Sequence record: OR791786.1
DNA: 6,408 bases
Direction: 5' to 3' (one strand)
Origin: Escherichia phage Copypasta
Each line of letters starts with the position of its first letter. Position 1 is the stretch's first letter. Of this stretch, positions 2,165 through 6,128 are shown in pieces. A program made the translations under genes and the position numbers. Below the pieces are notes generated by a model. It was not told the DNA's origin and searched no databases. It was given only the letters and a program-made list of their open reading frames with translations.

Positions 2165-2192
2165 AAAGGCTCCTTTTGGAGCCTTTTTTTTT
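2165..2192 (+). terminator. Rho-independent terminator after gene VIII (central Ff terminator): stem aaaggctcc / loop tttt / ggagccttt followed by a T-run
   Basis: Seen in sequence: GC-containing inverted repeat 2165..2173 / 2178..2186 followed by eight or more T residues (2184..2192). Established knowledge: Ff phages have a strong rho-independent terminator immediately distal to gene VIII. Confidence 0.9.
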
Positions 2193-2205: not shown

Positions 2206-3480
2206 GTGAAAAAATTATTATTCGCAATTCCTTTAGTTGTTCCTTTCTATTCTCACTCCGCTGAAACTGTTGAAAGTTGTTTAGCAAAACCTCATACAGA
2301 AAATTCATTTACTAACGTCTGGAAAGACGACAAAACTTTAGATCGTTACGCTAACTATGAGGGCTGTCTGTGGAATGCTACAGGCGTTGTGGTTTGTACT
2401 GGTGACGAAACTCAGTGTTACGGTACATGGGTTCCTATTGGGCTTGCTATCCCTGAAAATGAGGGTGGTGGCTCTGAGGGTGGCGGTTCAGAGGGTGGCG
2501 GTTCTGAGGGTGGCGGTACTAAACCTCCTGAGTACGGTGATACACCTATTCCGGGCTATACTTATATCAACCCTCTCGACGGCACTTATCCGCCTGGTAC
2601 TGAGCAAAACCCCGCTAATCCTAATCCTTCTCTTGAGGAGTCTCAGCCTCTTAATACTTTCATGTTTCAGAATAATAGGTTCCGAAATAGGCAGGGTGCA
2701 TTAACTGTTTATACGGGCACTGTTACTCAAGGCACTGACCCCGTTAAAACTTATTACCAGTACACTCCTGTATCATCAAAAGCCATGTATGACGCTTACT
2801 GGAACGGTAAATTCAGAGACTGCGCTTTCCATTCTGGCTTTAATGAGGATCCATTCGTTTGTGAATATCAAGGTCAATCGTCTGACCTGCCTCAACCTCC
2901 TGTTAATGCTGGCGGCGGCTCTGGTGGTGGTTCTGGTGGCGGCTCTGAGGGTGGTGGCTCTGAGGGTGGCGGTTCTGAGGGTGGCGACTCTGAGGGTGGC
3001 GGTTCCGGTGGTGGCTCTGGTTCCGGTGATTTTGATTATGAAAAGATGGCAAACGCTAATAAGGGGGCTATGACCGAAAATGCCGATGAAAACGCGCTAC
3101 AGTCTGACGCTAAAGGCAAACTTGATTCTGTCGCTACTGATTACGGTGCTGCTATCGACGGTTTCATTGGTGACGTTTCCGGCCTTGCTAATGGTAATGG
3201 GGCTACTGGTGATTTTGCTGGCTCTAATTCCCAAATGGCTCAAGTCGGTGACGGTGATAATTCGCCTTTAATGAATAATTTCCGTCAATATTTACCTTCT
3301 TTGCCTCAGTCGGTTGAATGTCGCCCTTATGTCTTTGGCGCTGGTAAACCATATGAGTTTTCTATTGATTGTGACAAAATAAACTTATTCCGTGGTGTCT
3401 TTGCGTTTCTTTTATATGTTGCCACCTTTATGTATGTATTTTCGACGTTTGCTAACATACTGCGTAATAAGGAGTCTTAA
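2206..3480 (+). CDS. III: Gene III protein (pIII), minor coat/adsorption protein precursor, 424 aa (18-aa signal peptide; N1 and N2 domains, two Gly-rich linkers, C-terminal anchor domain); GTG start
   Basis: Translation from GTG 2206: [18 protein letters not shown] / [62 protein letters not shown]..., ending ...[10 protein letters not shown]; 424 codons. SD GGAG at 2193..2196, 9 nt upstream of the GTG. The C-terminal [14 protein letters not shown] is the fd-type sequence as I recall it. The ORF track's ATG at 2176 lies inside the terminator hairpin and is not the start. Confidence 0.96.
2461..2520 (+). repeat. Four tandem 15-bp repeats (GAGGGTGGYGGYWCW) encoding (EGGGS)3-EGGGT, the first glycine-rich linker of pIII
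   Basis: Seen in sequence: gagggtggtggctct / gagggtggcggttca / gagggtggcggttct / gagggtggcggtact. Confidence 0.95.
2911..3027 (+). repeat. Tandem GGT/GGC-rich repeats encoding the second glycine-rich linker of pIII (GGGS and EGGGS units)
   Basis: Seen in sequence: repeated ggtggcggctct / gagggtggcggttct units; translation [39 protein letters not shown]. One unit reads GGC GAC TCT (Asp at 2986..2988) instead of the Gly codon present in the other units. Confidence 0.95.
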
Positions 3481-3482
3481 TC

Positions 3483-3821
3483 ATGCCAGTTCTTTTGGGT
3501 ATTCCGTTATTATTGCGTTTCCTCGGTTTCCTTCTGGTAACTTTGTTCGGCTATCTGCTTACTTTCCTTAAAAAGGGCTTCGGTAAGATAGCTATTGCTA
3601 TTTCATTGTTTCTTGCTCTTATTATTGGGCTTAACTCAATTCTTGTGGGTTATCTCTCTGATATTAGCGCACAATTACCCTCTGATTTTGTTCAGGGCGT
3701 TCAGTTAATTCTCCCGTCTAATGCGCTTCCCTGTTTTTATGTTATTCTCTCTGTTAAGGCTGCTATTTTCATTTTTGACGTTAAACAAAAAATCGTTTCT
3801 TATTTGGATTGGGATAAATAA
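3483..3821 (+). CDS. VI: Gene VI protein (pVI), minor coat protein at the pIII end of the virion, 112 aa
   Basis: ORF 3483..3821, 112 aa, MPVLLGIPLLLRFLGFLLVTLFGYLLTFLKKGFGKIAIAISLF...; starts 2 nt after the gene III stop. Confidence 0.96.
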   Translation: MPVLLGIPLLLRFLGFLLVTLFGYLLTFLKKGFGKIAIAISLFLALIIGLNSILVGYLSDISAQLPSDFVQGVQLILPSNALPCFYVILSVKAAIFIFDVKQKIVSYLDWDK

Positions 3822-3823
3822 AT

Positions 3824-4870
3824 ATGGCTGTTTATTTTGTAACTGGCAAATTAGGCTCTGGAAAGACGCTCGTTAGCGTTGGTAAGATTCAGGATAAAAT
3901 TGTAGCTGGGTGCAAAATAGCAACTAATCTTGATTTAAGGCTTCAAAACCTCCCGCAAGTCGGGAGGTTCGCTAAAACGCCTCGCGTTCTTAGAATACCG
4001 GATAAGCCTTCTATTTCTGATTTGCTTGCTATTGGGCGTGGTAATGATTCCTACGACGAAAATAAAAACGGTTTGCTTGTTCTTGATGAATGCGGTACTT
4101 GGTTTAATACCCGTTCATGGAATGACAAGGAAAGACAGCCGATTATTGATTGGTTTCTTCATGCTCGTAAATTGGGATGGGATATTATTTTTCTTGTTCA
4201 GGATTTATCTATTGTTGATAAACAGGCGCGTTCTGCATTAGCTGAACACGTTGTTTATTGTCGCCGTCTGGACAGAATTACTTTACCCTTTGTCGGCACT
4301 TTATATTCTCTTGTTACTGGCTCAAAAATGCCTCTGCCTAAATTACATGTTGGTGTTGTTAAATATGGTGATTCTCAATTAAGCCCTACTGTTGAGCGTT
4401 GGCTTTATACTGGTAAGAATTTATATAACGCATATGACACTAAACAGGCTTTTTCCAGTAATTATGATTCAGGTGTTTATTCATATTTAACCCCTTATTT
4501 ATCACACGGTCGGTATTTCAAACCATTAAATTTAGGTCAGAAGATGAAATTAACTAAAATATATTTGAAAAAGTTTTCTCGCGTTCTTTGTCTTGCGATA
4601 GGATTTGCATCAGCATTTACATATAGTTATATAACCCAACCTAAGCCGGAGGTTAAAAAGGTAGTCTCTCAGACCTATGATTTTGATAAATTCACTATTG
4701 ACTCTTCTCAGCGTCTTAATCTAAGCTATCGCTATGTTTTCAAGGATTCTAAGGGAAAATTAATTAATAGCGACGATTTACAGAAGCAAGGTTATTCCAT
4801 CACATATATTGATTTATGTACTGTTTCAATTAAAAAAGGTAATTCAAATGAAATTGTTAAATGTAATTAA
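3824..4870 (+). CDS. I: Gene I protein (pI), inner-membrane assembly ATPase, 348 aa, with Walker A motif GKLGSGKT near the N-terminus
   Basis: ORF 3824..4870, 348 aa, MAVYFVTGKLGSGKTLVSVGKIQDKIVAGCKIATNLDLRL...; P-loop motif GSGKT seen in the translation; starts 2 nt after the gene VI stop. Confidence 0.96.
   Translation: MAVYFVTGKLGSGKTLVSVGKIQDKIVAGCKIATNLDLRLQNLPQVGRFAKTPRVLRIPDKPSISDLLAIGRGNDSYDENKNGLLVLDECGTWFNTRSWNDKERQPIIDWFLHARKLGWDIIFLVQDLSIVDKQARSALAEHVVYCRRLDRITLPFVGTLYSLVTGSKMPLPKLHVGVVKYGDSQLSPTVERWLYTGKNLYNAYDTKQAFSSNYDSGVYSYLTPYLSHGRYFKPLNLGQKMKLTKIYLKKFSRVLCLAIGFASAFTYSYITQPKPEVKKVVSQTYDFDKFTIDSSQRLNLSYRYVFKDSKGKLINSDDLQKQGYSITYIDLCTVSIKKGNSNEIVKCN
3947..3969 (+). other. Perfect 9-bp inverted repeat with 5-nt loop (aacctcccg / caagt / cgggaggtt) inside the gene I coding sequence
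   Basis: Seen in sequence at 3947..3955 and 3961..3969; encodes QNLPQVGRF. Function is not determinable from sequence; candidates are an mRNA structural or processing element or part of the rho-dependent termination region reported within Ff gene I. Confidence 0.5.
4544..4870 (+). CDS. XI: Gene XI protein (pXI), 108 aa, in-frame internal translation start within gene I (Met241 of pI); membrane assembly protein
   Basis: Seen in sequence: ATG at 4544 in frame with gene I (codon 241), product MKLTKIYLKKFSRVLCLAIGFASAFTYSYI... is 108 aa with a hydrophobic segment. Established knowledge: Ff gene XI is an internal in-frame restart of gene I giving a 108-aa protein. Confidence 0.85.
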   Translation: MKLTKIYLKKFSRVLCLAIGFASAFTYSYITQPKPEVKKVVSQTYDFDKFTIDSSQRLNLSYRYVFKDSKGKLINSDDLQKQGYSITYIDLCTVSIKKGNSNEIVKCN

Positions 4871-6128
4871 TTTTGTTTTCTTGATGTTTGTTTCATCATC
4901 TTCTTTTGCTCAAGTAATTGAAATGAATAATTCGCCTCTGCGCGATTTCGTTACTTGGTATTCAAAGCAAACAGGTGAATCTGTTATTGTCTCACCTGAT
5001 GTTAAAGGTACTGTGACTGTATATTCCTCTGACGTTAAGCCTGAAAATTTACGCAATTTCTTTATCTCTGTTTTACGTGCTAATAATTTTGATATGGTTG
5101 GCTCTAATCCTTCCATAATTCAGAAATATAACCCAAATAGTCAGGATTATATTGATGAATTGCCATCATCTGATATTCAGGAATATGATGATAATTCCGC
5201 TCCTTCTGGTGGTTTCTTTGTTCCGCAAAATGATAATGTTACTCAAACATTTAAAATTAATAACGTTCGCGCAAAGGATTTAATAAGGGTTGTAGAATTG
5301 TTTGTTAAATCTAATACATCTAAATCCTCAAATGTATTATCTGTTGATGGTTCTAACTTATTAGTAGTTAGCGCCCCTAAAGATATTTTAGATAACCTTC
5401 CGCAATTTCTTTCGACTGTTGATTTGCCAACTGACCAGATATTGATTGAAGGATTAATTTTCGAGGTTCAGCAAGGTGATGCTTTAGATTTTTCCTTTGC
5501 TGCTGGCTCTCAGCGCGGCACTGTTGCTGGTGGTGTTAATACTGACCGCCTCACCTCTGTTTTATCTTCTGCGGGTGGCTCGTTCGGTATTTTTAACGGC
5601 GATGTTTTAGGGCTATCAGTTCGCGCATTAAAGACTAATAGCCATTCAAAAATATTGTCTGTGCCTCGTATTCTTACGCTTTCAGGTCAGAAGGGTTCTA
5701 TTTCTGTTGGCCAGAATGTCCCTTTTATTACTGGTCGTGTAACTGGTGAATCTGCCAATGTAAATAATCCATTTCAGACAATTGAGCGTCAAAATGTTGG
5801 TATTTCTATGAGTGTTTTTCCGGTTGCAATGGCTGGCGGTAATATTGTTCTGGATATTACTAGCAAGGCCGATAGTTTGAGTTCTTCTACTCAGGCAAGT
5901 GATGTTATTACTAATCAAAGAAGTATTGCGACAACGGTTAATTTGCGTGATGGACAGACTCTTTTACTCGGTGGCCTCACTGATTATAAAAACACTTCTC
6001 AGGATTCTGGCGTACCGTTCCTGTCTAAAATCCCTTTAATCGGCCTCCTGTTTAGCTCCCGCTCTGATTCTAACGAGGAAAGCACGTTATACGTGCTCGT
6101 CAAAGCAACCATAGTACGCGCCCTGTAG
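4848..6128 (+). CDS. IV: Gene IV protein (pIV), outer-membrane secretin for phage export, 426-aa precursor with a 21-aa signal peptide
   Basis: ATG at 4848 preceded by SD-like aaggt (4836..4840); translation MKLLNVINFVFLMFVSSSSFA / QVIEMNNSPLRDFVTWYSKQ..., ending ...YVLVKATIVRAL; overlaps the 3' end of gene I by 23 nt in a different frame. The ORF track's upstream ATG at 4809 would add 13 residues in front of the signal peptide and is not the start. Confidence 0.95.
   Translation: MKLLNVINFVFLMFVSSSSFAQVIEMNNSPLRDFVTWYSKQTGESVIVSPDVKGTVTVYSSDVKPENLRNFFISVLRANNFDMVGSNPSIIQKYNPNSQDYIDELPSSDIQEYDDNSAPSGGFFVPQNDNVTQTFKINNVRAKDLIRVVELFVKSNTSKSSNVLSVDGSNLLVVSAPKDILDNLPQFLSTVDLPTDQILIEGLIFEVQQGDALDFSFAAGSQRGTVAGGVNTDRLTSVLSSAGGSFGIFNGDVLGLSVRALKTNSHSKILSVPRILTLSGQKGSISVGQNVPFITGRVTGESANVNNPFQTIERQNVGISMSVFPVAMAGGNIVLDITSKADSLSSSTQASDVITNQRSIATTVNLRDGQTLLLGGLTDYKNTSQDSGVPFLSKIPLIGLLFSSRSDSNEESTLYVLVKATIVRAL

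Follow-up and report, generated by a model that had tools for sequence, protein, structure and literature searches.

Location and anatomy of the hairpin in gene I

The window analysed here (6,408 nt) is the complete genome of phage fd, opened at the replication nick site and matching J02451 at 99.9 %; fd coordinates are obtained by subtracting 627 from those of the window (Table 1). Gene I, whose homologues are covered by the precomputed Pfam domain PF05707, follows directly on gene VI, with only two bases between the gene VI stop codon and the gene I ATG. An earlier note, made from the letters of the sequence, had pointed to a perfect hairpin with a GC-rich stem about 120 nt into this AT-rich gene, and the description holds in every part: the two arms are 100 % complementary, forming a 9-bp stem (G-C in six of the nine pairs) closed by a 5-nt loop, and the stem starts exactly at codon 42, i.e. 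123 nt downstream of the first base of the ATG and 125 nt beyond the gene VI stop.

The hairpin lies in frame across pI codons 42–49, encoding the peptide NLPQVGRF, and in three of its nine pairs both partners are wobble bases, codon 46 being matched with codon 44, codon 47 with codon 43 and codon 48 with codon 42. Its right arm includes an SD-like GGAGG, and RNA folding extends the stem by three weak pairs across an internal loop. The site is without an annotated feature in the database records of fd, f1, M13, IKe and I2-2.

Table 1. Features at and around the gene I hairpin, in window coordinates
Feature	Position	Strand	Description
Gene VIII central terminator hairpin	2165-2186	+	the genome's only other perfect 9-bp short-loop stem, followed by a T-run
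Gene VI	3483-3821	+	directly upstream of gene I; stop codon 3819-3821
Gene I (hairpin host)	3824-4870	+	pI, Zot-family assembly ATPase; GC 36 %, GC3 27 %
Hairpin	3947-3969	+	AACCTCCCG-CAAGT-CGGGAGGTT; fd 3320-3342, f1/M13 3319-3341
Left arm	3947-3955	+	AACCTCCCG; pI codons 42-44, AAC CTC CCG = N L P
Loop CAAGT	3956-3960	+	codon 45 (CAA, Q) and first two bases of codon 46
Right arm	3961-3969	+	CGGGAGGTT; base 3 of GTC, GGG, AGG, TT of TTC = V G R F

Folding stability

RNA folding was among the checks that the earlier note proposed. In a 43-nt context the hairpin formed at −15.6 kcal/mol (z = −3.76), and none of 200 dinucleotide shuffles folded as well. The stem was kept in contexts of 300–1900 nt, eight of its pairs having probabilities of 0.94–1.0 and the outermost A-U pair one of 0.745; the core pairs stayed at 0.94 or above in contexts of 500–1900 nt. 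While the strongest local folds of the genome are found in the intergenic region, the gene I hairpin is the strongest in coding sequence and, outside the intergenic region, ties with the gene VIII terminator.

Folded as DNA, the sequence again stands out (−10.3 kcal/mol, z = −4.84), as might be expected of an element acting in the single-stranded genome, where it could fold back without being covered by pV or SSB, mark a site for some host or phage protein, provide a secondary priming site or make complementary-strand synthesis pause; hairpins also make up the known ssDNA signals of the phage, both the packaging signal and the minus-strand origin. Regardless, we regard such a role as very unlikely: the known Ff DNA signals are all intergenic and much longer (at least 13 bp), 9 bp is short for a DNA hairpin recognised by protein, and the hairpin is single-copy, without related sequence elsewhere in the genome, and not conserved in If1, IKe and I2-2 despite their common replication and packaging strategy.

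Codon make-up and chance expectation

The six codons that determine the stem are all minority codons ending in G or C, set in a gene with a GC3 of 27 %; their shares in fd are 22 % (AAC), 9 % (CTC) and 20 % (CCG) in the left arm, and 11 % (GTC), 7 % (GGG) and 7 % (AGG) in the right arm. When codons were shuffled with the protein preserved, all nine in-register pairs arose at the hairpin site in 1 of 1000 shuffles, and a local minimum free energy (MFE) at or below that observed in 0.5 % and 0.65 % of shuffles in two runs. The outcome depends, however, on the test applied. Taken over the whole genome, 31 % of codon shuffles had a minimum 32-nt coding-sequence MFE as low as that observed or lower (p = 0.31), and some perfect stem of 9 bp or more with a loop of 3–8 nt appeared in 16 % of genome dinucleotide shuffles, falling to 0.9 % when at least six G-C pairs were required. 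The hairpin is therefore improbable locally, but as a post-hoc choice from the whole genome its improbability is not overwhelming.

These figures bear on the main alternative, only slightly less likely than the reading favoured below, namely that the hairpin has no function and that the peptide N-L-P-x-V-G-R-F is intrinsically palindrome-prone. Pro CC can pair with Gly GG, Leu CT with Arg AG and Asn AA with Phe TT, so that first and second codon positions already supply six of the nine pairs, and five to seven in-register pairs are usual in shuffles. Since the register aligns wobble with wobble, the stem could be perfected at no protein cost, either by drift or by a quasi-palindrome template-switch ‘correction’ during ssDNA replication; perfection of quasipalindromes by template switching is reportedly established. 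Some perfect 9-bp stem in 16–20 % of shuffled genomes, and equal energy in 31 %, are in line with this explanation, whereas the site-specific probability of 0.001–0.0065 and the minority status of all six stem codons argue against it.

Variation within the fd/f1/M13 (Ff) group

Further evidence on the same point comes from the Ff group, for which 16 haplotypes from about four lineages were available, with 35 % of wobble sites variable. The stem is invariant in fd, f1, M13 and wild Ff phages, while adjacent and loop wobble sites drift; for example, the wild variant L179 carries an A>G change at gene nt 135, the wobble position within the loop, and keeps the stem intact. Among the nine consecutive wobble sites over the hairpin, variation is confined precisely to the three outside the stem, all six stem sites being constant (Fisher 0.012), a pattern seen in 1 of 222 windows, and this speaks for a function. 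Under an unconditional test, the stem invariance is marginal (0.077–0.09), and it may be neutral, as paired bases in an ssDNA genome may simply be less mutable. If the hairpin had no function, its persistence in Ff would follow from the youth of the clade together with fewer mutations at paired ssDNA bases.

Ff relatives of intermediate distance, i.e. at 66–90 % pI identity, which would allow drift to be tested, were absent from 5.8 billion protein clusters; the sole candidate, a match at 73 %, turned out to be a truncated If1-like protein, and scans of metagenome and viral contigs with degenerate peptide patterns added one new Ff lineage only.

Comparison with gene I homologues outside Ff

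Outside Ff, register-free MFE tests against codon shuffles were used, since in-register scoring hid hairpins in a shifted register. The conservation that could be followed through fd, f1, M13 and wild Ff did not extend further: the If1 clade has a broken stem, IKe a partial one (7 bp) at the corresponding site, and I2-2 has lost it by uncompensated synonymous changes, although the I2-2 peptide is identical to that of IKe. Compensatory substitutions, for which the earlier note had proposed to look, failed to appear; across the homologues, paired cells amounted to 61.1 % vs 64.7 % in shuffles and the covariation score to 0.091 vs 0.128, so that the formal pair count comes without covariation, the invariant pairs being the Pro/Gly C-G ones only. 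With compensatory change lacking and the stem lost between IKe and I2-2, the hairpin does not qualify as a conserved cis-regulatory RNA structure, and the best Rfam matches, at about 18 bits (E 0.2–0.5), were far under the gathering thresholds.

The missing covariation fits a hairpin without function, as does the nature of the peptide segment beneath it, which belongs to a variable, indel-prone part of pI, with a two-codon deletion exactly at the hairpin's place in 68 of 85 lineages. Hairpins also come and go between close relatives with identical peptides (L091 vs L092, L023 vs L098, IKe vs I2-2), and they are absent from L092, L098 and L040, the nearest relatives of the two other lineages bearing a hairpin at this site. 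On the other side, a Xenorhabdus prophage (p 0.002) and lineage L023 (p 0.0025) each have an independent hairpin of different sequence on the same Pro/Gly core. Finding hairpins at p ≤ 0.0025 at the same site in two more lineages argues against mere accident (binomial for at least 2 of 16, about 7e-4 by our own estimate).

Another hairpin, at codons 29–35 of the IKe clade, is kept despite 42.5 % wobble divergence. Over gene I codons 1–65, hairpins with z < −2 were found in 12 of 85 lineages vs 2 and 3 in control regions (Fisher 0.002), which would also argue against a functionless hairpin; under a stricter, region-restricted null, the values were 0.018 at p ≤ 0.02 and 0.056 at p ≤ 0.05, and we do not claim this enrichment as established. 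It would be tempting to speculate that many inoviruses place a strong stem-loop, built from synonymous codons, in the first ~150 nt of the Zot-type ATPase gene, a device repeatedly re-invented that would keep the message of the capsid genes apart from that of the toxic assembly gene where genomes lack intergenic space, but we consider so general a rule improbable.

The early stem-loops differ in position: those of marine lineages cover the Walker A motif at codons 9–23, that of IKe/I2-2 lies at codons 29–35, and those of Ff, the Xenorhabdus prophage and L023 fall within codons 39–52.

Candidate roles of the hairpin

With 9 bp, six G-C pairs and a 5-nt loop, the stem is of the kind found in intrinsic terminators. 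It is, however, followed by TTCGCTAAAA, and as there is no U-tract 3' of the stem, the hairpin is not an intrinsic terminator; a terminator scan does not report the site, while it does find the gene VIII terminator. Several other classes were set aside. An RNase III site requires about two helical turns (~20 bp) of dsRNA vs the 9 bp present, and a REP-like dispersed palindrome does not fit a single-copy hairpin, the other CCTCC/GGAGG sites being unrelated and at chance frequency. Neither can the GGAGG serve as an internal start site, as it is without a start codon downstream. The idea that the CCUCC motif might pair with ribosome-binding sites, also raised in the earlier note, did not stand up: the motif is locked in the stem to its own GGAGG, and its best duplex at the initiation region of gene I reaches −7.4 kcal/mol, and those at the other initiation regions tested −4.2 to −9.5 kcal/mol, vs −14.2 kcal/mol for the hairpin, which therefore is not an anti-SD or RBS-sequestering element.

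The further roles offered there, i.e. processing or stability, attenuation and a link to Rho termination, are all plausible candidates. Attenuation could take the form of a translational brake, in which the stem, the minor codons (AGG above all) and the SD-like GGGAGG of codons 47–48 would slow early ribosomes, holding toxic pI scarce, while translation uncoupled from transcription would favour Rho. No codon is rarer in E. coli than AGG, which accounts for 7 % of Arg codons in fd, GGAGG occurs only twice on the + strand of the genome, both times in gene I, and the hairpin falls within the first 50 codons, hairpins early in the gene recurring in other lineages; moreover, pI is said to be made at very low levels and to be lethal when overproduced. 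Nevertheless, a brake seems unlikely to us. Lying 123 nt from the start codon, the stem cannot occlude the gene I initiation site, with which its pairing is weak, and a 9-bp stem is easily opened by a ribosome once elongation is under way. Judged by the codon usage of E. coli, AGG alone of the stem codons is really rare, CCG and AAC being host-preferred; the GGAGG count is at chance level, and If1 and I2-2 do without the stem.

Most likely, the hairpin is either an accident or a small mRNA element peculiar to this lineage, and in neither case a new kind of system. The reading that we tentatively favour is that it may act, at the RNA level, as an Ff-specific 3'-end barrier or stability element for the gene III–VI transcripts, tied to Rho termination early in gene I. 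Genes III and VI would be transcribed from weak upstream promoters, and Rho would halt most of this transcription near the start of gene I, which is poorly translated and whose proximal part reportedly holds a Rho-dependent terminator in f1/M13. The ragged 3' ends of Rho-terminated RNAs would then be trimmed by 3'->5' exonucleases to the first stable stem-loop; such trimming back to a hairpin has reportedly been seen at trp t' and elsewhere. Because the gap of two bases between gene VI and gene I is in practice too small to hold a 3' structure of the III–VI transcript, a 3' barrier has to sit inside gene I, and the hairpin, which does form stably in its mRNA context, as is required of a 3'-end-protecting hairpin, might both set and protect the 3' end of the III–VI messages. 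Gene I, the product of which is toxic in excess, would remain on rare read-through transcripts only.

Rho loads on some 70–80 nt of unstructured, untranslated RNA that is rich in C and poor in G. The opening 120 nt of gene I have about 10 C and about 20 G per 78 nt, a composition that counts against the link to Rho; as a predictor of Rho loading, base composition is uninformative here. Modest tracts with C in excess of G lie at 3654–3731, within the translated gene VI, and at 3920–4020, including the hairpin. The accessible literature and database records gave neither mapped positions of the Rho terminator in gene I nor a transcript-end map at the hairpin, and one review puts a ‘major rho-dependent terminator’ in the intergenic region, without details.

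If functional, the hairpin would be a compact regulatory RNA structure made purely of synonymous codons, in a genome without spare intergenic room, and would help to explain how Ff phages keep toxic pI scarce and yet make pIII and pVI. There is a practical side as well: recoding and refactoring of M13 and fd genomes are routine, as is their use for display vectors and DNA-origami scaffolds, and codon ‘optimisation’ of gene I would destroy the stem. If not functional, it would be a cautionary case of a palindrome-prone peptide giving rise to a perfect, design-like hairpin.

Comparison with known systems

Within the same genome, the rho-independent terminator of gene VIII likewise has a short loop on a perfect 9-bp stem, with a local folding energy equal to that of the gene I hairpin (−14.9 kcal/mol); it is intergenic and followed by a T-run, whereas the gene I hairpin is in frame within a gene and runs into TTCGCTAAAA. 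A short stable hairpin in or beside a Rho region is also known from lambda tR1, where boxB lies between rutA and rutB. In contrast to boxB, which is the binding site of N and has a defined loop, the fd hairpin is without an evident partner or C-rich rut flanks.

With the products of template switching at quasi-palindromes, the hairpin shares a perfect short inverted repeat where constraints dictate an imperfect one, and ssDNA replication favours the fold-back templating by which such products arise. The likeness would be one of mutational origin, not of function.

The Rho-dependent terminator reportedly present in gene I of f1/M13 agrees with the hairpin in phage group, gene and general location, as well as in the low gene I expression expected of both. 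There is also a likeness in form to the hairpins at the 3' ends of Rho-terminated transcripts, known from E. coli trp t' and from genome-wide maps. Unlike these, the fd hairpin, which is only a candidate for such a 3' end, is built from codons in coding sequence and not in an untranslated tail, and the region upstream is not C-rich. In common with them, it is stable, GC-rich and free of a U-tract, it lies in a poorly translated stretch beyond the last gene to be well expressed, and its stability should be enough to stop PNPase and RNase II.

A perfect GC-rich hairpin within gene I

The 6408 nt make up the whole circular genome, linearised exactly at fd position 5782, i.e. the annotated viral-strand origin (pII nick site); fd coordinates therefore equal window coordinates minus 627. 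Gene I shares 99.9 % identity with that of phage fd (J02451) and 97 % with those of M13 and f1. The GC-rich inverted repeat that the earlier note had described in this AT-rich coding region is indeed perfect, with six G–C pairs out of nine. RNA folding, which had been suggested as a check, bears the structure out: the local fold reaches −15.6 kcal/mol (z −3.76), and the stem is retained in mRNA contexts of 300–1900 nt with core pair probabilities of 0.94–1.0. In a 32-nt scan of the genome, the hairpin (−14.9 kcal/mol) is level with the gene VIII terminator and is surpassed only by the origin and packaging hairpins of the intergenic region. The local DNA fold amounts to −10.3 kcal/mol (z −4.84); a role at the ssDNA level is nonetheless highly improbable in our estimation.

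Features of the hairpin region (window coordinates)
Feature	Position	Remarks
Gene VI	ends 3821	
Gene I	3824-4870	pI, Zot-family assembly ATPase
Left arm	3947-3955	
Loop		CAAGT, between the arms
Right arm	3961-3969	perfectly complementary to the left arm (9 bp)
GGAGG, first copy	3963-3967	coding strand, within gene I
GGAGG, second copy	4648-4652	coding strand, within gene I

The stem-loop coincides exactly with codons 42–49 (AAC CTC CCG CAA GTC GGG AGG TTC, encoding N-L-P-Q-V-G-R-F). Six pairs are supplied by first and second codon positions (Asn AA with Phe TT, Leu CT with Arg AG, Pro CC with Gly GG), while the other three join wobble positions, i.e. those of codons 42, 43 and 44 with those of codons 48, 47 and 46, respectively. 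Therefore, this peptide in itself predisposes its coding sequence to palindromes, and synonymous changes alone suffice to complete the stem or to abolish it. All six stem-determining codons end in G or C, in a gene with a G/C content at third codon positions (GC3) of 27 %, and each is a minority choice in fd (AAC 22 %, CTC 9 %, CCG 20 %, GTC 11 %, GGG 7 %, AGG 7 %).

When synonymous codons were permuted within genes, keeping the protein fixed, all nine in-register pairs arose at this site in 1 of 1000 shuffles, and an equal or better local energy in 0.5–0.65 %. Anywhere in the genome, a perfect 9-bp short-loop stem occurred in 16–20 % of shuffled genomes; the share was 0.1–0.9 % when six or more G–C pairs were required, and 31 % for a coding-region hairpin of equal energy. 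There is thus a local excess over chance, and the genome-wide result depends on the statistic used. Since the hairpin was chosen by visual inspection of the whole genome, the statistical case is suggestive, not compelling.

Conservation within and outside the Ff group

In a large protein collection, pI sequences form one cluster at ≥90 % identity, with the next at 66 %, so that only shallow drift is available for a conservation test among Ff phages. Our sample comprised 16 gene I haplotypes, which fall into some four lineages: fd, M13/f1, the FfLavender group (drawn from assemblies and sequencing runs of Salmonella and Klebsiella) and, from a metagenome, contig L179, whose retrieval was not biased towards intact stems because every wobble position was left free in the degenerate pattern search. 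Variation affects 35 % of wobble positions over the first 230 codons. Of the nine successive wobble sites over the hairpin, gene nt 123, 135 and 147 vary, lying one base 5' of the stem, in the loop and one base 3' of it, respectively, and none of the six stem sites does (conditional Fisher 0.012; unconditional probability of no change 0.077). The same pattern was found in 1 of 222 windows. A lower mutation rate of paired bases in an ssDNA genome may mimic selection on the stem.

L179 (OGVK01007936.1, 791–1574) differs from fd by ~5.7 % over the first 700 nt, and beyond ~nt 696 of gene I the two no longer align, perhaps because of an indel, some rearrangement or chimerism at the contig end. Another gene I copy (JPUP01000095.1, 860–1906), filed under a marine SAR11 single-cell genome (‘SAR11 cluster bacterium PRT-SC02’), differs from fd at 29 positions, as many as M13, and is almost certainly laboratory M13 contamination. 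Further inovirus contigs have been assigned to Actinomadura, Candidatus Nanosynbacter and an ‘uncultured archaeon’ MAG.

Beyond the Ff group, conservation of the stem fails. In 68 of 85 non-redundant pI lineages (loci L031–L168, Halomonas, Vibrio, Marinomonas and others), two codons are deleted exactly at fd Pro44-Gln45 (window 3953–3958, the hairpin centre), giving L--IG instead of L-PQ-VG; this pI segment is therefore variable and indel-tolerant. The compensatory substitutions that the earlier note had proposed to look for did not emerge: the 26 distinct sequences keeping P-x-V-G show no covariation in the fd stem and fewer paired cells than column shuffles (61.1 vs 64.7 %), the only invariant pairs being two C–G pairs forced by Pro and Gly. 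The If1 clade has an interrupted stem with 4–7 of nine in-register pairs including G–U (4–6 Watson–Crick; codon-shuffle z +1.0 to −1.2), and IKe has a 7-bp stem at this site (−12.4 kcal/mol). In I2-2, identical to IKe over the first 60 pI residues with 42.5 % of wobble sites different, the stem is lost (−3.0) via uncompensated synonymous changes. Conservation despite synonymous drift, which the earlier note had suggested checking, is thus seen within Ff and breaks down in If1, IKe and I2-2. This sporadic phylogenetic pattern, together with the weak genome-wide statistics, speaks for a functionless product of a palindrome-prone peptide, a possible reading that we nevertheless regard with some doubt; in the ssDNA replicon, quasi-palindrome template switching may have brought such a stem to perfection.

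Hairpins elsewhere in early gene I

A register-free test, comparing local minimum free energies with codon shuffles, revealed very strong hairpins of different sequence around the same Pro/Gly core in two other lineages, i.e. a Xenorhabdus bakwenae prophage (CTGCCCC-GTGT-GGGGCGG, −15.1 kcal/mol, p 0.002) and L023 (a bulged 14-bp stem, −15.3 kcal/mol, p 0.0025); the nearest relatives of each that share its peptide have no such hairpin. The X. bakwenae SF857 chromosome (1003657–1016233) carries two Ff/If1-related gene I copies ~8.5 kb apart, suggesting tandem or duplicated inovirus prophages; their hairpin regions are identical in sequence, and the GC-rich hairpin sits at the site homologous to that in fd, with its register shifted.

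Gene I codons 1–65 are enriched in exceptionally strong hairpins, with z<−2 in 12 lineages vs two and three in codons 65–130 and 130–195 (Fisher 0.002). The enrichment is weaker when codons are shuffled only within each region, i.e. nine vs two and five lineages at p≤0.05 (Fisher 0.056) and six vs none and two at p≤0.02 (Fisher 0.018), fd itself reaching p 0.053. In the IKe clade (IKe and PEar1), a perfect 7-bp GC-rich hairpin (GGTGGCA-TTGT-TGCCACC; codons 29–35, gene nt 85–102; codon-shuffle z −4.5) is kept in I2-2 with one C–G to U–G change despite the 42.5 % wobble divergence. In marine lineages, the Walker A codons are spanned by hairpins of about −21 kcal/mol. A number of marine inovirus lineages (L084, L167, L168, L165 and L125) show hairpins of −18 to −22.6 kcal/mol (z −3.4 to −7.5, whole-gene codon shuffle) in codons 9–31, at the Walker A (P-loop) motif or immediately 3' of it, with mutual pairing of codons for Gly (GGC), Ser (AGC) and Ala (GCC/GCT). 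These data hint at a position-flexible role of such early hairpins in gene I, which we do not regard as established, and it seems improbable that inovirus assembly genes recurrently carry a movable hairpin, encoded by codon choice, near their start.

Possible roles of the hairpin

As no T-run follows the stem, the hairpin is not an intrinsic terminator. It is too short for an RNase III site, its distance from the start codon is too great for it to mask gene I initiation, and the defining tests for a conserved RNA family and a dispersed repeat were negative. On the minus strand (3939–3969), the hairpin precedes TTTTGAAG, which looks more like a terminator tail than does TTCGCTAAAA on the plus strand; antisense transcription is not known in Ff.

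The idea that CCUCC pairs with a ribosome-binding-site-like sequence had to be abandoned, since the motif is sequestered in the stem by its own GGAGG: no other pairing, with the gene I initiation region as partner, is better than −7.4 kcal/mol, vs −14.2 for the hairpin. Both motifs occur at chance frequency in the genome, and neither of the only two coding-strand copies of GGAGG, the full Shine–Dalgarno pentamer, is followed by a start codon. A translational brake composed of the stem, AGG and the Shine–Dalgarno-like sequence is an unlikely proposition.

The most economical role, which we advance tentatively, is that of a putative 3'-exonuclease barrier or 3'-end-defining structure on gene III–VI transcripts, which Rho would terminate in the early part of gene I. 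With a gap of just two bases between genes VI and I, such a barrier must sit inside gene I. The proposal builds on two points from the literature: proximal gene I of f1/M13 reportedly contains a Rho-dependent terminator, and Rho-terminated RNAs in general are reported to be trimmed back to a stable hairpin. Base composition just upstream of the hairpin singles out no good Rho-loading site.

The mapping papers of the 1980s may have described the dyad already, and it would at most be a lineage-specific example of an already known element type in one of the best-studied genomes. It is similar in size and stability to the Ff central terminator hairpin and also resembles the stem-loops found at the mature 3' ends of transcripts terminated by Rho.
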